Shown here: piece after piece, positions 1,946 through 55,545 of the stretch
Layout of the letters: the number at the start of each line of letters is the position of its first letter
How positions within the stretch are numbered: the first letter of the stretch is position 1
Source of the DNA: a virus
Lineage: Duplodnaviria; Caudoviricetes
IMG/VR virus record: IMGVR_UViG_3300033802_000250
Strand: one strand, 5' to 3'
DNA: 64,000 nt
Notes under the pieces: model-generated
Told to the model about the DNA's origin: nothing
What the model saw: only the letters and a program-made list of their open reading frames with translations
Databases searched by the model: none
Program-made: the position numbers and the translations under genes

Positions 1946-3217
1946 TTAGATTTGAACGCCCAATCGTTCTTGGATCATGGATTTGAACAACACCTTTTCA
2001 GTGTCATCGGTAATGAGCCGGTAAATCGGCATCAATTCGTCGAGCATGTCGGCTTTGAGGCGTTGCAGTTTCTTGTCGTACTCCTCAAAGATCGACGAAG
2101 CCAGAAACATCCGGGCCGGGATGGCTTTGTCGGCGATGTATCGCCGAATCGCTTTACCCTTTTGGCCCATATAATTCATCTGCTCTGCCGGATCACGCGG
2201 CGTGGAGATAATGACGTACACCTTGAAGCCGCGAGCAAGCAGGCGGCCAATAGTGCGCTCCATCGCCTCCCGGCCCGCTTCGTCACCGTCGTACCAGAAG
2301 TAGATGTTCTTCGTGAGCTTCTCCAGAATGTCCATCTGTTCATCGGTAAACGACGTACCGCACGTTGCGATGGTGTTCTCGATACCGCATTGATGTGCAA
2401 TAATGACATCGGTATAACCCTCAACAACGAGTGCGTAACCGGCTTCTCGGATCGCCTTGCGTGCTTCGTTCAATCCGTAGAGAATCTGACCCTTCTTGTA
2501 GATCTCCGACTCTTTATCGTTGATGTACTTGGCCGAATGATCCTTGGAGCCTTTCTCATAATTCATGTCACGATATGCCATCGCAATCGTCTTGGCCTTT
2601 TTCGGATTCCAGCAGGGCTCCGTAATTCCAAAGACAAGGCGGCCTTCCAACAGCGTGCCAAAATAGGGATGACGGTATCCTTTTGGCACGAGCCCAATCC
2701 GCCATTTCTTAATGGCGTCCCGATGAATGCCACGGCTGTCCAGATAAGCGAGCATCTTCTCGCTTTTCAGGAGCGTTTTGCAGAACAGCTTGTTGTCTTC
2801 CGTCATCTTTTGCTTCATCTTTTCGAGCTTTGCGTCCACCTTGGCTTTGGGAATCGGGATACCCGCCCGCTCCATCAGGATGACGCAGGCTTCGATATAC
2901 GAACAACGTTCCATGTTCATCACAAAACCGATGACACTCGGGCCGCCATCTTCAATGGTTACGCCGTCAGGCAGGTGAAGCATGTGAGGGATGCGTTTCT
3001 CCTTGTTCTCCCATCGAGTGCCTGCCCGGCAAGCGTAACAATGATAGGTGTTGTTTTCCGTATGAAGATGCAGGCTCGGTGTCGATTCCTTATGAAAAGG
3101 GCAGATCGCTTTGTTGTTCGCGCCGAAAACGACACCGTATTCCTCCGCGACTTCCCTGAGATCATTCTCCTCAAGGATGCGATCTAGCAGTTCGTCAGTG
3201 ATCGTCCCAACCTTCAC
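1946..3217 (-). CDS. dnaG: DNA primase
   Basis: CHC2 zinc finger CPFH...CYAC, KYIN, VVEGYTDV and DGDEAG TOPRIM motifs; GTG start after GGGAGG. Confidence 0.93.
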   Translation of the reverse strand: MKVGTITDELLDRILEENDLREVAEEYGVVFGANNKAICPFHKESTPSLHLHTENNTYHCYACRAGTRWENKEKRIPHMLHLPDGVTIEDGGPSVIGFVMNMERCSYIEACVILMERAGIPIPKAKVDAKLEKMKQKMTEDNKLFCKTLLKSEKMLAYLDSRGIHRDAIKKWRIGLVPKGYRHPYFGTLLEGRLVFGITEPCWNPKKAKTIAMAYRDMNYEKGSKDHSAKYINDKESEIYKKGQILYGLNEARKAIREAGYALVVEGYTDVIIAHQCGIENTIATCGTSFTDEQMDILEKLTKNIYFWYDGDEAGREAMERTIGRLLARGFKVYVIISTPRDPAEQMNYMGQKGKAIRRYIADKAIPARMFLASSIFEEYDKKLQRLKADMLDELMPIYRLITDDTEKVLFKSMIQERLGVQI

Positions 3218-36986: not shown

Positions 36987-37086
36987 TGGCGGTGGGTAAG
37001 GAGTTGAACCTTCATCGACGCCCACAATGTTTCAACGCACGCCGCGTCAGATTTGTTGGCGACGCCGCCTGCCGGGCGGCCACCGC
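36987..37086 (-). ncRNA. tRNA-like RNA D (anticodon arm replaced by a long irregular hairpin)
   Basis: GCGGTGG/CCACCGC closing stem, CCGCC/GGCGG D-like hairpin, AAGG-TTCAACT-CCTT T arm, 3' CCA. Confidence 0.6.
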
Positions 37087-37087
37087 A

Positions 37088-37176
37088 TGGTAGGGACGGG
37101 AGGGACTTGAACACCTCCAGCACCTTTCAGTTGTCCCCGATCACTTCGGGGTGGCTTTACCATTGCCTACATCCCA
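37088..37176 (-). tRNA. Atypical tRNA-like gene C (GUG at the anticodon position, A33, long variable arm, bulged T stem)
   Basis: GGGATG/CGTCCC acceptor, GGC/GCC D arm, CCCCG-AAGTGAT-CGGGG, TTCAAGT T loop, ACCA. Confidence 0.65.
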
Positions 37177-37179
37177 TAG

Positions 37180-37257
37180 GGGCTCTCACTGAGGGAATCG
37201 AACACCCCGCGCGGCGTCTGCGCAGACTGCGACGCGCCATCCACCAGATGAGTGAGA
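37180..37257 (-). ncRNA. tRNA-like RNA B
   Basis: TCTCACT/AGTGAGA acceptor, CATC-TGGTG-GATG D-like hairpin, TTCGATT T loop; no 7-nt anticodon loop and ends GCCC. Confidence 0.6.
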
Positions 37258-37258
37258 A

Positions 37259-37348
37259 TGGAGCGGGAGGGTGGATTTGAACCACCGAAGCTCCTCTGGA
37301 GCAGAGTCTTGCAGGACTCTTGCGTTTATCCGACTTCGCTACTCCCGC
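37259..37348 (-). tRNA. Atypical tRNA A (Cys-like GCA and U73, long variable arm, 6-bp stem with 6-nt anticodon loop)
   Basis: GCGGGAG/CTCCCGC acceptor, AGAGTC-CTGCAA-GACTCT, GCTCC/GGAGC variable arm, GGTGG-TTCAAAT-CCACC, TCCA. Confidence 0.75.
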
Positions 37349-37411: not shown

Positions 37412-37981
37412 TTACCTGCCAATCCTCGCTTCTATACTACCATCCTTCTCCACAATCGTCAATACACAATTGCGGAATAGTAGTGAAGCGCGTGTTGCCT
37501 CGTTATCCGGCGTTTCCTTGCTGGAGAAGCCGATACCGGGGTCAACCTCGAAGTGATGCACATAATGGGTTTGTCCGTTACATTTGATCACCCACGGCGG
37601 GATGTTGTACGGATCCTCATTATGTTTTTTGTTGAAGTGCACCACCACTCGCGTCTTCTTGTCCACCTTCACCAATACTTGTTCCATGTCCGATACCTCC
37701 TGTTTGTGGATAACTACGATTGTTCTTCCTTCGTCAGTTGTCATAAACGACACGTACGCTTTCGGAACAATGAAACAGGCCGGTGATCGGGCTTTGGGTC
37801 GAACTTTCGCACGCATTCCGCACCCCGGAACCACCTTCACGCCATCTGCAAAGTAATGTTCTCCTTTGTAGAGAACAACCCACGGATGCGGATTGACGCG
37901 ACAGAAGGTGATAGGCTGATACGAGAAAACGACCTTGGCGGGCGAGCCGGGCACCTAACGAAAGTCCAGCTTCTCCTTCAT
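37412..37981 (-). CDS. Tandem two-domain hypothetical protein with in-frame TAG at codon 9 and internal start at 37687
   Basis: AAGGAG-N9-ATG AAG GAG AAG CTG GAC TTT CGT TAG GTG CCC; two similar domains (PWVVLYKGEHYF and PWVIKCNGQTHY). Confidence 0.65.
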
Positions 37982-38033
37982 CTGACATCACTCCTTGAAA
38001 TGTATTTGGTAAACGCCTTGCGGCGGAGTACCC

Positions 38034-38708
38034 TTAGTCGGGCCATTCAATGGGGATATGTGATTGAATTGGAGGATCAAGTAGACGTTCTTCGGGCCAA
38101 TTTTTGTCTACTCTAGTCCTGAGAGTCTGATAATTTATACCACTACATTCAGACCATTCACTCATTGTTTTGGTTACGCCGTTAATCGTAATATAGCGTG
38201 TACATTCTCTGTTCCTTAATTGCTCCTTAGTTGTAGACCATTTACAATTAGACGGACTATATGGGCCATCACTCTCTATTCGATCAATGGTCTTACTGTC
38301 ATCATAGCCATTTTGAATTGCCCATTTGTAAAATTCATTAAAATCATCCCATTCAGGACAAACAGAAACACCTTTGGCACCATACCATTTGTAATCTTTA
38401 CTGTTTGGATTATTGCATCTTGTTCTCATGCCTTGCCAAATACGATACAATCGTGTTCCTTTTTGTAATCGACCGTTCTTCGATTGTCCATGCTTTGTGT
38501 ACTTGATGGATTTGATTGCACCTTCGCATTTTCTACATCTGGTCGCTTTAGGTATATCCTTTTGTATAATATTTCTAATTGTCCCGCATTTGCATCGACA
38601 TGCCCATACTGGTCTGTTTGTCTTCAAGTTATGATCATATACTCGATGCAATACAGTCCAATCATTGTATTTCTGCCCTTTTTGAATGTCAAGTTTCTTC
38701 ATGTGCAA
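38034..38708 (-). CDS. Free-standing HNH homing endonuclease, AT-rich
   Basis: CRCKCG, LYRIWQGMRTRC, YGAKGVSVCPEW, TIDRI..DGPYSPSNCKW. Confidence 0.88.
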   Translation of the reverse strand: MHMKKLDIQKGQKYNDWTVLHRVYDHNLKTNRPVWACRCKCGTIRNIIQKDIPKATRCRKCEGAIKSIKYTKHGQSKNGRLQKGTRLYRIWQGMRTRCNNPNSKDYKWYGAKGVSVCPEWDDFNEFYKWAIQNGYDDSKTIDRIESDGPYSPSNCKWSTTKEQLRNRECTRYITINGVTKTMSEWSECSGINYQTLRTRVDKNWPEERLLDPPIQSHIPIEWPD

Positions 38709-38723
38709 TCACCTTCAAAATCA

Positions 38724-38767
38724 TGGTGGCCTCGCTGGGGATCGAACCCGGGACACGCGATTTTAGA
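38724..38767 (-). pseudogene. 3' half of a tRNA starting at a CUA anticodon loop
   Basis: TCTAAA-ATCGC-GTGTC-CCGGG-TTCGATC-CCCAG-CGAGGCC-ACCA; 5' half not found. Confidence 0.75.
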
Positions 38768-38781
38768 TGGCAGAGGATAAA

Positions 38782-38857
38782 TGGTGCGCCCGGCAGGACT
38801 CGAACCTGCGCCTCCGATTTTAGAGATCGACGTTCTGACCAACTGAACTACGAGCGC
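38782..38857 (-). tRNA. Amber suppressor tRNA (anticodon CUA)
   Basis: Canonical 76-nt cloverleaf GCGCTCG TA GTTC..GAAC G TCGAT-CTCTAAA-ATCGG AGGC GCAGG-TTCGAGT-CCTGC CGGGCGC ACCA. Confidence 0.93.
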
Positions 38858-38861
38858 ATAT

Positions 38862-38949
38862 TGGGGAAACCGCGGACTCGAACCGCCGGACTCCGGTGGA
38901 GCGACCACCTTCAGGGAAACCCATCCCTTGATTAGTCCATTAGAATCCC
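38862..38949 (-). ncRNA. tRNA-like RNA G (no D stem, branched middle domain)
   Basis: GCGG-TTCGAGT-CCGC T arm, imperfect acceptor plus CCA, GGACT/AGTCC stem enclosing two hairpins. Confidence 0.55.
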
Positions 38950-52894: not shown

Positions 52895-54655
52895 TCACTT
52901 TGCGGCCTTTCGGATATCTTCCAGTTCAAGCTGAACAGACACTTTTCCCGAGCCTTTGGGATATTCGTTCAGGTTGGGGAAGAACGCGATGTCGATCTTT
53001 TGCGGTTTGCCCAGAGCGACGTATTTGTCATACAGCCAGAAGCCGATTGTCGAGAACGTTGTCTTGCCGTCGCTGAGCAAAGCCCACAAATGATTCTTCT
53101 CCTCTCCGACAGGCATCTCGCGGATCACCTTTAATTTTCTCATCATAAAAGTGGGCCGCTGATTTCCATTGCCAAAGGGTTCAAGCCTGCGGATATCCTT
53201 TACGAAGTCGATGTCGAGAATTTTGCCGTTTTCGATGATACAGTCAATGTACACCTTGCGTTGCAGGTCTTCGTTCGACAGAATCGTTTCGGCGTAAAGC
53301 TCAAGGCGTGCCCGTAATTGCTCGAAGTTGTCTTTATGGACGGATAGGCCACATGCCATTGTATGTCCGCCGAAACCTTCCATGATGCTCGTCTGATGCA
53401 TCAGCGCTCCGAACATGTCGAACCCTTTGATCGAACGTGCCGACCCTTTATAGATATCTGGTTCTTCGCTGTCTGACAGCAGGATGGCAGGTTTGTAGAA
53501 ATGGTTGGCGATCCTGCCTGCAATTAACCCAATGATGCCTTCCGGCACACCGGGATGATAATGCACAATGATCGCAGTTGGATCGTCCTGTTGTTCAGAC
53601 TCAATGGCCTCAATGATGGATTGAACGTACTTCTTGGTGAGTTTCTTTCGTTCTTCGTTGATTTCCACAAGCTTCTTCGCGCATCGGTAGGCATCAAGCT
53701 TGTTGTTGGAGATGAGCATCTCCACCGCATCCGTCGCCGATACAATGCGTCCGGCGGCGTTGATGCAGGGGGCAATCGTCCATCCGATATCCTTGGATGA
53801 CAGCTTCTTGTCGGCGAGATCATTGGCCCTAATTAACTGGTAGAGGCCACGATTCTTCGTTTTCTTCATCATCTTGAGCCCGAGTTTGCCGATTACACGG
53901 TTCTCATCAATGACATCCATTTGGTCAGCAAACGTGCCGAGCGCAACGATGTCCATATGAGCGTAAGCGGCGGCTCTGCCGGTGGGGTGAATCTTCTCGC
54001 ATACCGCACAAAGAATCTTGAACGATACGCCAACACCGGCAAGTGATTTGAATGGATACTTGCAATCCGGGCGCTTGGGATTGACAACGATAGTGTCAGG
54101 AATGAGATATGCCTCATTGGTGGCGTTGTGTACGACTTGTCCAATCTTCTGCAAGGCTTCATCGTATGCATCTACCGGTTGGGGTTCATGATGATCGGTC
54201 ACAATGATGTCCATGCCAAGCGATTTGGCAAACTGCACTTGCTCAATAGCCGTAATACCGGTATCGCATGTGATGATAAGCTGAACGCCCTGCTTGTGAC
54301 AGTCAGTGATCGCCTTGTTATTGACACCGTAACCATCCTTGAACCGGTCGGGCACGAAGTAGCTCACATCTGCTCCGAGTTCCCGGAGAATCATCACCCA
54401 TAGCGATGTGGAAGAAACGCCGTCGGCATCATAGTCGCCATAAATGCGAATCTTCTCGCCATTCTTGATGGCTTGTGTGATACGTTGTACGGCCTTCTTC
54501 ATGTCCTTCATCTTGTACGGGTTGTGGAGCTTCTTCTTCGTGATCTTGAGAAAGTCGGCAGGATCTTCAATCCCGCGCATCTCAAGCAGTTCGATTGCCG
54601 GATTCTCGCCGCTGATAACAGCATCATTGCATCTCCAGATGGTCTGTGCGCCCAC
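52895..54655 (-). CDS. recJ: Single-stranded DNA exonuclease RecJ
   Basis: YGDYDADG, TCDTG, TDHH, INAAGR, GSARS, GGH and EPFGNGN motifs. Confidence 0.95.
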   Translation of the reverse strand: MGAQTIWRCNDAVISGENPAIELLEMRGIEDPADFLKITKKKLHNPYKMKDMKKAVQRITQAIKNGEKIRIYGDYDADGVSSTSLWVMILRELGADVSYFVPDRFKDGYGVNNKAITDCHKQGVQLIITCDTGITAIEQVQFAKSLGMDIIVTDHHEPQPVDAYDEALQKIGQVVHNATNEAYLIPDTIVVNPKRPDCKYPFKSLAGVGVSFKILCAVCEKIHPTGRAAAYAHMDIVALGTFADQMDVIDENRVIGKLGLKMMKKTKNRGLYQLIRANDLADKKLSSKDIGWTIAPCINAAGRIVSATDAVEMLISNNKLDAYRCAKKLVEINEERKKLTKKYVQSIIEAIESEQQDDPTAIIVHYHPGVPEGIIGLIAGRIANHFYKPAILLSDSEEPDIYKGSARSIKGFDMFGALMHQTSIMEGFGGHTMACGLSVHKDNFEQLRARLELYAETILSNEDLQRKVYIDCIIENGKILDIDFVKDIRRLEPFGNGNQRPTFMMRKLKVIREMPVGEEKNHLWALLSDGKTTFSTIGFWLYDKYVALGKPQKIDIAFFPNLNEYPKGSGKVSVQLELEDIRKAAK

Positions 54656-54767
54656 TTGCTTCACCTACCCTTGCAATGTCACGTAAAGAGGCGATTTATG
54701 TAACGTCCCTCCCCCTTTATAATACACAACTTCGTCTGGATTTACCAGCCAAAACAGCGGCATTTTA

Positions 54768-54845
54768 TCAGATGAGAGCGACGAGTGCATACGAAATGAT
54801 TGCAACAGCAAGCAAAATCCACTGCAACCCAATGCGTCTGCGCAT
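54768..54845 (-). CDS. 25-aa membrane peptide
   Basis: TAGGAGGTG RBS; MRRRIGLQWILLAVAIISYALVALI. Confidence 0.6.
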   Translation of the reverse strand: MRRRIGLQWILLAVAIISYALVALI

Positions 54846-54856
54846 GAGTACACCTC

Positions 54857-55510
54857 CTAAGCGTAGTTTGGATACTTGATGACACGGAGTTGCACCCCGA
54901 GTTCTTCGCAGATGTTAATCATACCGCGCGTGCCGGGAGATGATCCATCCCAAAAACAAATGACGCCGCCGCGAAGATTTTTCACGAGCGTCGCCATGTC
55001 ACAATTGCGTAACATACCGGCGCGTTTGCCGTACCGATTCCAGTCAGCCGGGAAGTACGCAACATCATAGCCGCGCTCCTTCGCATAACGCTCGCCGAGT
55101 CTGTCGGCTCCTTTTGCGGTGCCGGATACAACAACGATCTGCTTCTTGATGCGGCGTGTAATCTTGTCCGCCTTCATCTTCAGCAGTTCGTAATCATCGA
55201 AGTCCCGGGAGCCCGCAATCACTAGGAAGAACGTATTTTCAATCAGATCGACAATCACATCACCATGACATGCGGCAGGCTTGCAAAAGCACGCAAGCGT
55301 TTTGTCCTTCAATTCATGAAGGGACAGTAAAAGCTCCGGTTGTCTGAGAATCCACTGGCGATAATTCTGTATAGCTTCTTCGCGAGTGGCGACTTTGAAC
55401 TTCGCCTTGGTGCCTTCCATGTGTGAAAACGGATTGCCCCATTTCGAGCCACGACCAATGTATTCATCAAACGGAAGCTTGTGATACTTATTAACGATTG
55501 TTGTTGCCAT
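54857..55510 (-). CDS. DUF4326 plus YspA/SLOG-like (DUF2493) fusion
   Basis: YIGRGSKWGNPF..LACFC.P..CHGD, then IAGSRDF, SGTAKGAD, FWDGSSPGT. Confidence 0.85.
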   Translation of the reverse strand: MATTIVNKYHKLPFDEYIGRGSKWGNPFSHMEGTKAKFKVATREEAIQNYRQWILRQPELLLSLHELKDKTLACFCKPAACHGDVIVDLIENTFFLVIAGSRDFDDYELLKMKADKITRRIKKQIVVVSGTAKGADRLGERYAKERGYDVAYFPADWNRYGKRAGMLRNCDMATLVKNLRGGVICFWDGSSPGTRGMINICEELGVQLRVIKYPNYA

Positions 55511-55545
55511 ACCCGTCGCATCCTTTCATTCCATAGTCATAACAT

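Follow-up and report, generated by a model that had tools for sequence, protein, structure and literature searches.

An in-frame amber codon at the start of a phage gene beside a suppressor-type tRNA(CUA) gene, a candidate gene-specific translational switch

A tRNA gene of the amber-suppressor type, tRNA(CUA), lies next to a gene with a conserved in-frame UAG near its start in the Caudoviricetes virus record IMGVR_UViG_3300033802_000250, of which a single stretch of 64,000 nucleotides was analysed here (hereafter the window). A tRNA-plus-amber-gated-gene module of the same kind was found in dozens of other phages, and those genomes that we examined use the standard code. This points to a gene-specific translational switch, of which we found no prior description. 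The pair was first noticed in a preliminary description made from the sequence alone, and its observation was correct in every sequence detail. Its interpretation, that the product is specific to this gene and depends on the suppressor rather than on genome-wide recoding, was supported by comparative evidence that was not available to it, with the refinements given below. The features of the locus are listed in Table 1.

Table 1 Features of the amber-gated locus in the window.
Feature	Position	Strand	Description
tRNA(CUA)	38782..38857	-	Amber-suppressor type; 76 nt; anticodon loop CU-CUA-AA; A73; encoded CCA; the only canonical tRNA in the window
HNH-type homing endonuclease gene	38034..38708	-	Between the tRNA and the gated gene; GC lower, about 44%; context, probably an insertion, not a working part of the switch
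Shine-Dalgarno (SD)	37991..37996	-	AAGGAG; 9-nt spacer to the ATG
Start codon	37979..37981	-	ATG; the only SD-served start codon of this gene
Prefix	37958..37981	-	Eight codons, MKEKLDFR
Amber codon	37955..37957	-	TAG; codon 9; followed by a purine (G)
Codon after the TAG	37954 (first base)	-	GTG without SD
Linker plus domain 1	37688..37954	-	Degenerate copy of the HFNKKH-type beta domain; signature motifs lost; under purifying selection
Internal SD	37695..37701	-	AGGAGGT; serves ATG 37687; could yield domain 2 alone, independent of the TAG
Domain 2	37412..37687	-	Canonical HFNKKH...P.W...KETP domain; all-beta; no known fold
Stop codon	37412..37414	-	TAA; ends the 180-codon frame that follows the TAG
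Cys-like tRNA	37259..37348	-	GCA in a 6-nt (or 8-nt) anticodon loop; U73; CCA; long variable arm; third recurring partner of the module

A tRNA gene search, which the preliminary description had proposed as a test, confirmed the tRNA(CUA): ARAGORN called it with anticodon CTA, and the Rfam tRNA model (RF00005) scored 71.6 bits over its full length (positions 1-71) against a gathering score of 29. The tRNA forms a canonical cloverleaf with a 7-nt anticodon loop, U33 and anticodon CUA. The tRNA is identical in L001, a syntenic relative (81% identical), and is covered in four independent metagenome runs. The Cys-like tRNA was reported by ARAGORN as '(gc)' and scored 43.6 bits with Rfam. The homing endonuclease gene matched phrog_374 and phrog_3377 (E 1e-53 to 1e-54), coincides with a dip in GC and is also present in L001.

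The two domains of the gated gene are related, with a BLASTP match of domain 1 against domain 2 at E=1e-5 and 23% identity, and AlphaFold2 (AF2) models showed the same strand order in both (pLDDT 54-79 for domain 1 and 91.5 for domain 2). Pfam and PHROGs gave no family for the 180-aa protein. Structure searches with the model returned no match in the PDB (best Foldseek E 0.03), a best Z of 3.3 in the VIA-wide search, which is chance level, and only weak leads in the Atlas search (a feature match at 0.75 and TM 0.66 to a viral DUF2061 cluster); we assign no fold. Single-domain relatives, such as P0002, also exist.

The window itself uses the standard code. TAG is an ordinary stop for 11-18 of about 84 ORFs, depending on how ORFs are picked. 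Reading TAG as sense (83 versus 77 ORFs; coverage 0.921 versus 0.932) gained less than reading TGA or TAA as sense, and the ORF pairs joined by TAG (the RecJ region, the RecA region and two others) are separate genes. Of 14 window ORFs preceded in frame by a TAG, only this one has an SD and ATG upstream of the TAG and no SD-bearing start after it, and no other of the 84 ORFs shows this pattern.

The possibility that the TAG is a sequencing error or a private nonsense mutation had been named in advance as a way in which the reading could fail, and independent sequences speak against it. L001 keeps an M(M)EKLDFR-TAG prefix with two synonymous and no non-synonymous changes, although its GTG is replaced by GGC and an ATG lies four codons after the TAG. 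A 99.5-kb soil contig keeps both prefix and TAG unchanged, and a manure contig keeps the TAG with three prefix changes, all synonymous, whereas two further contigs were too diverged at 37909-38014 for the TAG to be read. Downstream of the TAG, dN/dS against L001 was 0.23 for domain 1 and 0.09 for domain 2. Coding constraint is thus observed on both sides of a conserved stop. A nucleotide search of the phage collection for close relatives gave only tRNA-level hits, and an exact tRNA pattern found nothing in viral contigs.

The canonical second domain defines a small, phage-only family of unknown fold, with invariant H-F-N-K-x-H, D, P-x-W, K, G-x-T-x-Y-V-x-H, K-E-T-P and T columns in about 75 aa. 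Domain 2 of the window protein carries every one of these columns and matches the family profile, whereas domain 1 does not. The family comprised 154 representative clusters; 347 relatives were found in viral contigs, of which 80 loci were read. A metagenome scan added one distant relative, and a scan of bacterial genomes found only 6 MAG contigs, so the family is phage-borne.

Alignment of homologues, to see whether the early TAG is conserved or a sense codon and whether this varies with the tRNA, had also been suggested beforehand. In 22 of 41 sequence clusters, a start codon is followed by 0-10 codons and then TAG, 7-12 codons before the conserved HFNKKH motif. Most of these have no start codon after the TAG (17 of the first 20 have no ATG), but a few have an ATG or an in-motif GTG after it. 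No cluster has an early TAA or TGA without a later start. An SD-like motif lies upstream of the pre-TAG ATG in 12 of 20, and the base after the TAG is a purine in 20 of 20 family genes. tRNA(CUA) lies on the same strand within 3 kb in 28 of 36 clusters, and the linkage is seen even where the gene is ungated. Among other isotypes within 1.5 kb, tRNA-Cys(GCA) or '(gc)' occurs in 18 of the 36 clusters and every other isotype in at most 6. The clusters are phylogenetically related, so these counts overstate independence; the tree is poorly resolved, with at least 2 state changes forced and 10 by parsimony. Sense-codon homologues read M-[SA]-Q-[IV]-E where gated ones read M-x-TAG-I-E. About 25 database gene calls are truncated at the first internal Met, and in the cultured Rhizobium phage RHph_I1_18 the family gene is unannotated; there SD-ATG-4 codons-TAG precedes it, tRNA(CUA) lies 30 nt downstream, and a Cys-like tRNA of the same kind lies beside the tRNA(CUA).

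In relatives, a PTH2-like peptidyl-tRNA hydrolase gene (PF01981, above cut-off in 5 of 5 tested) sits directly upstream of the family gene, in about 50 of the 80 loci, and PTH2 fusions also occur. This gene is itself amber-gated in 31 of 34 distinct sequences, of which 31 of 31 have a purine after the TAG and no ATG downstream of it that could serve as an alternative start, and usually no start at all. Where gene 2 overlaps gene 1, and so could be translationally coupled, it is ungated in 16 of 17 cases; where it is separate, it has its own TAG in 12 of 14. A family-specific HMM gave no hit in any frame of the window (best E 0.33), so this partner is absent here. A predicted complex of the PTH2-like and HFNKKH proteins gave no verdict (score 0.23) and is not evidence either way. 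A generic scan for other amber-gated genes in two module-bearing genomes (complete phage G003 and contig G001) was too noisy to define a wider regulon beyond the two module genes.

The explanation that we favour, with fairly good though not full confidence, is that translation starts at ATG 37981 and that the UAG is decoded by the phage's own tRNA(CUA), encoded about 0.8 kb upstream on the same strand. In this view the full-length two-domain protein (189 aa) would be made only in proportion to the activity of that suppressor, in competition with host RF1. The tRNA and the gated gene are two parts of a conserved module found in standard-code phages, which holds tRNA(CUA), an amber-gated gene for a small all-beta HFNKKH/KETP protein, usually an amber-gated PTH2-like peptidyl-tRNA hydrolase gene directly upstream (absent from the window), and often an unusual Cys-like tRNA(GCA). 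The analysis establishes the anatomy of the locus, the conservation of the TAG with purifying selection on both sides, the exclusive use of TAG as the gating stop, the physical linkage of the family to tRNA(CUA) and the standard code of the genomes examined. By contrast, we infer that the tRNA is charged and reads this UAG, that the gate works as a switch or as feedback on suppressor activity, and that the protein, whose function is unknown, acts on tRNA or peptidyl-tRNA, as suggested by PTH2 fusions and operon adjacency. No RNA run containing the locus was found, and no experiment shows that the tRNA is expressed, charged or reads this codon. The inserted residue, left unassigned in the preliminary description, is most likely Gln. 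This rests on the alignments alone, because the tRNA(CUA) has A73 and G1-C72, unlike the co-resident phage tRNA-Gln genes, of which it is not a copy, and a nearest-neighbour comparison with 223 co-resident phage tRNAs gave no consistent isotype. It should also be considered that an active suppressor would read through the phage's own TAG-terminated genes, and that domain 2 could be made from its internal start without any readthrough.

The strongest alternative, which we consider unlikely, is that MKEKLDFR-UAG is a genuine 8-codon upstream ORF, with ribosomes terminating at the UAG and restarting at the adjacent GTG (AUU, AUA or GUN in relatives), the tRNA(CUA) being nearby for another reason. 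That homologues might start at the GTG had been recognised from the outset as a possible objection. Reinitiation is mechanically possible in this lineage, given the GTG in the window and the later ATG in L001, and a restart at the GTG cannot be excluded. The codon after the TAG in relatives is mostly AUU or AUA, which are rare but known initiators; residues 1-20 (prefix and linker) are disordered in the AF2 model, so the fold does not need them; and conserved leader peptides can also show synonymous-only change. The search for a start downstream of the stop leaves this point undecided for the window gene, despite the absence of such starts in most gated relatives. However, reinitiation does not explain why all 22 family gates and all 31 PTH2-like gates are TAG and none TAA or TGA, even in AT-rich genomes where TAA dominates. 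Nor does it explain the tight linkage to tRNA(CUA), or why M-x-Q-I-E in sense-codon homologues is colinear with M-x-TAG-I-E. In addition, GTA, GTC, GTT, AAC, AGA and ACA, which also follow the TAG, are not start codons, and L001 lacks the GTG.

It is less likely still that the phage is a partial code-15 (TAG=Gln) phage, in which the main targets of the suppressor are late or structural genes outside the window and this gene is one recoded gene among many. Module-wise TAG recoding with suppressor tRNAs is documented in gut phages (bioRxiv 10.1101/2021.08.26.457843), only 64 kb of a genome of at least 209 kb was examined, and the window consists mostly of replication and recombination genes such as RecA, RecJ and UDG. 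Against this, TAG is a normal stop in the window, and two other module-bearing genomes read at length, G003 (163.8 kb; TAG is 62 of 254 stops) and G001 (142 kb, rated about 45% complete by CheckV), show no gain from reading TAG as sense. The terminases of G001 and of a further genome, G005, carry no internal stops, RHph_I1_18 is annotated normally under code 11, and in the family the TAG sits at one fixed N-terminal position and is not scattered at Gln sites. A pseudogene, private mutation or assembly error with a coincidental tRNA, although a single in-frame stop near a gene start is the commonest signature of such cases, is effectively refuted by the independent contigs from different studies, the purifying selection and the recurrence across clusters only 40% identical to each other.

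Several described systems are comparable in part. In crAss-like, Lak and other gut phages with code 15, a phage-encoded tRNA(CUA) also operates in a standard-code host, TAG is likewise probably read as Gln, and the proposed use is to make translation of certain genes depend on the phage's own tRNA. There, however, tens to hundreds of TAGs are scattered through late or lysis genes, the genome fragments under code 11 and TAG is depleted as a stop, whereas here only one or two small genes next to the tRNA carry a single TAG within the first codons. In prfB (RF2) autoregulation, an early in-frame UGA also acts as a sensor through competition at the stop, but prfB escapes by +1 frameshifting and its product is the release factor itself, while here escape would be by a dedicated suppressor tRNA; whether the product feeds back on UAG decoding is unknown, and the support for it (linkage to tRNA(CUA) in ungated cases, PTH2 fusions and adjacency) is circumstantial. 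Programmed readthrough in viruses (Qbeta A1 protein, MuLV gag-pol) likewise involves one conserved in-frame stop, but uses host near-cognate or natural suppressor tRNAs at the end of a complete upstream protein, giving two products in a set ratio; here the virus supplies a cognate suppressor and the stop lies at codon 2-9, so that termination yields only a tiny peptide. The lambda bar minigenes, with peptidyl-tRNA drop-off countered by Pth, offer an analogy only: they too are two- to nine-codon ORFs ending in a stop, and relatives of our gene have a direct genomic link to a PTH2-type hydrolase, but bar minigenes are not followed in frame by a protein domain or linked to a suppressor tRNA. Finally, the standard-code jumbo phage Xanthomonas phage XacN1 carries tRNA(CUA) genes, for which its authors read through the annotated TAG stops and found no target (PMC5852040). 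Candidates of the present kind are missed by such searches because the TAG lies upstream of the called ORF, not at its end, although the neighbourhood of the XacN1 tRNA-Sup genes holds no family member or obvious gated gene.

A more far-reaching reading, which we regard as tentative and less likely than not, is that of a self-contained, horizontally spreading 'orthogonal pair' in nature, in which a phage-borne suppressor tRNA has one dedicated regulon, a small amber-gated operon encoding a PTH2-like hydrolase and/or the HFNKKH protein that travels with a non-canonical Cys-like tRNA. Its products would act back on tRNA or peptidyl-tRNA metabolism, and the early UAG would work as a built-in sensor matching their dose to suppressor activity, either as homeostatic feedback or as a licensing switch. 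This would explain why standard-code phages carry suppressor tRNAs at all.

Suppressor tRNAs in phages are currently explained only by genome- or module-wide code change, and for standard-code phages their targets are openly unknown (PMC5852040). The locus described here and its relatives point to concrete targets, namely one or two small genes next to the tRNA, each with a single amber codon fixed in the first few codons, which gene callers miss or truncate; the occurrence of the module in RHph_I1_18 makes the question directly testable in a culturable phage-host pair. If confirmed, this would be a natural gene-specific tRNA/codon switch in a virus, and it would link suppression to peptidyl-tRNA hydrolysis, give a protein of no known fold a translation-related context, and offer compact natural parts for orthogonal gene control.

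The window is phage-like, with every gene on the minus strand and a GC content of about 52%, and it encodes RecA/UvsX, RecJ, UDG, VWA and 3D-domain proteins. A 208.8-kb metagenome contig carries this locus or a close relative of it (9 differences in about 1 kb across the tRNA-HNH part), so the phage is probably a jumbo phage. ARAGORN, one of the tools by which the preliminary description had proposed that its tRNA be verified, found one canonical tRNA, with anticodon CTA, and Rfam scored it at 71.6 bits over the full tRNA model. On the same strand, 0.8 kb further on and past an HNH homing-endonuclease gene, AAGGAG and a 9-nt spacer precede an ATG and seven codons (MKEKLDFR), which are followed by an in-frame TAG, a GTG, and 180 open codons ending at TAA. 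The protein is a tandem of two related beta domains (BLASTP E=1e-5; same strand order in the AF2 model), and the second domain is preceded by AGGAGGT and its own ATG. Every statement that the preliminary description made about the sequence was correct.

The HNH-type endonuclease gene (phrog_374) has a GC content of about 44% against 52% around it, and is conserved in L001 (a syntenic 7.9-kb contig) and in the metagenome contigs. The tRNA(CUA) is flanked by tRNA-like fragments with T-arm GGTTCGA motifs and 3' ends resembling ...CCA, but no complete cloverleaf was called in them; the downstream fragment abuts the start of the HNH gene. Past the gated gene lies a head-to-tail array of tRNA-shaped RNAs, in which the first unit has a 6-bp stem, the loop CUGCAA, U73, CCA and a long variable arm, and in which a weak tRNA-Sec-like match (23.5 bits) was also found.

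Coordinates of the features in the window and in the other viral loci
Sequence	Position	Strand	Feature
Window	38858-38935 and 38709-38781	-	tRNA-like fragments flanking the tRNA(CUA)
Window	38782-38857	-	tRNA(CUA)
Window	38034-38708	-	HNH-type homing-endonuclease gene
Window	37981	-	ATG preceded by AAGGAG
Window	37957-37955	-	In-frame TAG
Window	37954	-	GTG after the TAG
Window	37687	-	ATG of the second domain, preceded by AGGAGGT
Window	37414-37412	-	TAA ending the gene
Window	36987-37348	-	Array of tRNA-shaped RNAs
Window	37259-37348	-	First unit of the array, Cys-like tRNA
Window	36989-37086		Weak tRNA-Sec-like match
Window	52895-55525	-	RecJ-like ORF
L007	2808-2883		tRNA-Cys(GCA) linked to the module
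L017, L020, L023, L024, L032, L041, L042, L044, L049, L039, L081, L072, L047			tRNA-Cys(GCA) genes linked to the module
L014	2643-2999		PTH2-like gene directly upstream of the family gene
L022	2648-2989		PTH2-like reading frame with one further internal stop codon
L082	about 2985-2990		ATG-TAG start of the family gene
L002/L010 (complete phage G003)	4770-4843		tRNA with anticodon TCA
L116 (Xanthomonas phage XacN1)	36560-39053		Stretch with no annotated feature and no long ORF

Whether the TAG might be a sequencing error or a private nonsense mutation, and whether homologues instead start at the GTG, had been raised in advance as points that could overturn the reading, and both were examined in related contigs. 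L001 has the same gene order (VWA, 3D, tRNA(CUA), HNH, gene, odd tRNA, WYL, UDG) and its protein is 81% identical. It keeps ATG-ATG-GAG-AAG-CTA-GAC-TTC-CGT-TAG in frame, with two synonymous changes in the prefix and GGC in place of the GTG of the window. Among contigs from other studies that were compared with the locus, a 99.5-kb soil contig has 16 differences in 1.7 kb, none of them in the prefix or the TAG, and a manure contig keeps the TAG with three prefix changes, all synonymous (CTG>TTG, GAC>GAT, TTT>TTC). When compared with L001, dN/dS is 0.19 overall, 0.23 for domain 1 and 0.09 for domain 2.

Genome-wide recoding is not seen in the window either. TAG ends 11-18 of about 84 window ORFs, and reading TAG as sense gains less coding length than reading TGA or TAA as sense. 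Of the 14 ORFs preceded in frame by TAG, only the gene described here has SD+ATG upstream of the TAG and no SD-served start after it. The RecJ-like ORF begins with GTG immediately after an in-frame TAG, and two upstream pieces are joined to it by TAGs, but the profile coordinates indicate separate genes (a DUF4326/SLOG protein, then RecJ), so this is not recoding.

Domain 2 defines a small family with invariant H-F-N-K-x-H, P-x-W, G-x-T-x-Y-V-x-H and K-E-T-P columns in our alignment. The family has 154 representative clusters among 1.84 billion and 347 relatives in IMG/VR, but only three cultured phages carry it, as do only six MAG contigs among 185,579 species genomes. The AF2 model is confident (pLDDT 91.5) but matches no solved fold.

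To evaluate whether the early stop is a conserved TAG or a sense codon among homologues, a comparison that had been proposed beforehand, we read 80 viral loci plus 7 more from other collections, clustered them at 85% identity, and classified the N-terminus of each. In 22 of 41 clusters, the first in-frame stop upstream of the motif is TAG, which lies 7-12 codons before the motif and is directly preceded by a start codon plus 0-10 codons (typically M-K, M-S, M-Q or M-M). In 17 of the first 20 gated clusters there is no ATG between the TAG and the motif, and usually no start codon at all. The other clusters have a plain ATG, and no cluster has an early TAA or TGA without a later start. An SD-like motif sits 5-12 nt upstream of the pre-TAG ATG in 12 of 20, and the base after the TAG is a purine in 20 of 20. 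One lineage (locus L082) has ATG-TAG directly, a start-stop arrangement with an SD-like motif upstream and a tRNA(CUA) that ends 149 nt before the conserved HFNKKH motif (about 110 nt before the ATG). Database proteins with a sense codon at this site read M-[S/A]-Q-[I/V]-E, where gated ones read M-x-TAG-I-E. About 25 representative entries are gene calls truncated at the Met of the P-M-W motif. In Rhizobium phage RHph_I1_18 the gene is simply unannotated; there, SD, ATG, four codons and TAG precede the motif, with no later start.

A tRNA(CUA) lies on the same strand within 3 kb in 28 of 36 clusters, and within 1.5 kb in 24, and many of these loci have no other tRNA. Whether the codon at this site goes along with the presence of the tRNA was likewise a question set at the outset, and the linkage holds whether or not the gene itself is gated. 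The next most frequent neighbour is tRNA-Cys(GCA), found in 13 clusters, plus 5 with a 6-nt-loop Cys-like tRNA that ARAGORN reports as '(gc)', whereas every other isotype occurs in at most 6 clusters. The tRNA-Cys(GCA) genes linked to the module are often non-canonical, with loops that read CCGCAAG or CAGCAAA (C33 or A33 instead of U33) or that have 6 nt, or 8 nt (ARAGORN '(cgca)' in locus L047), and all have U73; whether they decode or serve another role is unexplained. The Cys-like tRNA of the window and the one beside tRNA(CUA) in RHph_I1_18 are of this kind. In the complete phage G003, a tRNA with anticodon TCA (called SeC by ARAGORN, possibly an opal suppressor) lies in the same 29-tRNA array as the tRNA(CUA).

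In about 50 of 80 loci, a PTH2-like peptidyl-tRNA hydrolase gene lies immediately upstream of the family gene. It matches PF01981 above the cut-off in 5 of 5 tested, and it is fused to the family domain in some proteins (P0003 and P0132). That gene is itself amber-gated in 31 of 34 distinct sequences, in the pattern ATG, mostly 1-3 codons (up to 8), TAG, then usually I or V, with no start after the TAG and a purine after the TAG in 31 of 31. In locus L022, the PTH2-like reading frame contains one further internal stop codon, which was not examined. Operon layout tracks gating: where the start of the family gene overlaps the PTH2-like stop, so that it could be translationally coupled, it is ungated in 16 of 17 cases, and where the two genes are separated it has its own TAG in 12 of 14. 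The window has no PTH2-like gene in 64 kb, and its version is the two-domain, self-gated form.

The module is also carried by genomes that were read at greater length. Complete phage G003 (163.8 kb) and the 142-kb contig G001 (about 45% complete by CheckV's estimate) both reach about 90-93% ORF coverage under code 11. Neither gains anything special from reading TAG as sense, and TAG ends 62 of 254 ORFs in G003 and 10 of 175 in G001. The terminases of G001 and of G005, another of the genomes examined, have no internal stops. These phages use the standard code.

Literature searches returned only genome- or module-wide recoding and general suppressor biology. For Xanthomonas phage XacN1, it is stated that no targets could be found for its two tRNA(CUA) genes by reading through annotated TAG stops (PMC5852040); just downstream of these two tRNA-Sup(CUA) genes lies a 2.5-kb stretch with no annotated feature and no long ORF, which may hold structured RNA. 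We found nothing describing this family, its N-terminal amber codon or the module, although a prior description cannot be excluded given the incomplete literature covered. The targets that we propose here are the HFNKKH gene and, in relatives, the PTH2-like gene.

The conservation of the TAG, its recurrence in the family, the linkage to the tRNA and the standard code were observed directly, whereas the decoding of the codon is our inference from them. The simplest account is that translation starts at the SD-served ATG and that the early UAG is decoded by the linked phage tRNA(CUA), probably as Gln. Synthesis of the HFNKKH protein would therefore depend on suppressor activity, and in relatives the same would apply to the PTH2-like hydrolase. 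The suggestion in the preliminary description of a gene-specific, suppressor-dependent product rather than genome-wide recoding is thus supported. Nonetheless, in the window specifically, a restart at the GTG after the TAG is possible, as is TAG-independent synthesis of domain 2 from its own ATG, and the model leaves residues 1-20 disordered. An early position makes failure cheap, since only a tiny peptide is released. Release on very short nascent chains is inefficient, and a 3' purine favours amber suppression; neither effect was measured in these genes.

Among other explanations, termination-reinitiation cannot explain the exclusive use of TAG, the linkage to the tRNA, or the colinear M-x-Q-I-E homologues. 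Partial code-15 recoding is contradicted by the codon statistics, although it is not fully excluded without the complete genome of this phage. An error or a pseudogene is effectively excluded.

What these proteins do is not known, and a feedback or dose-matching circuit analogous to prfB is attractive but speculative. Three things argue for a role tied to tRNA or peptidyl-tRNA, namely the linkage to tRNA(CUA) even in ungated members, the fusion and adjacency to PTH2, and the co-travelling Cys-like tRNA.
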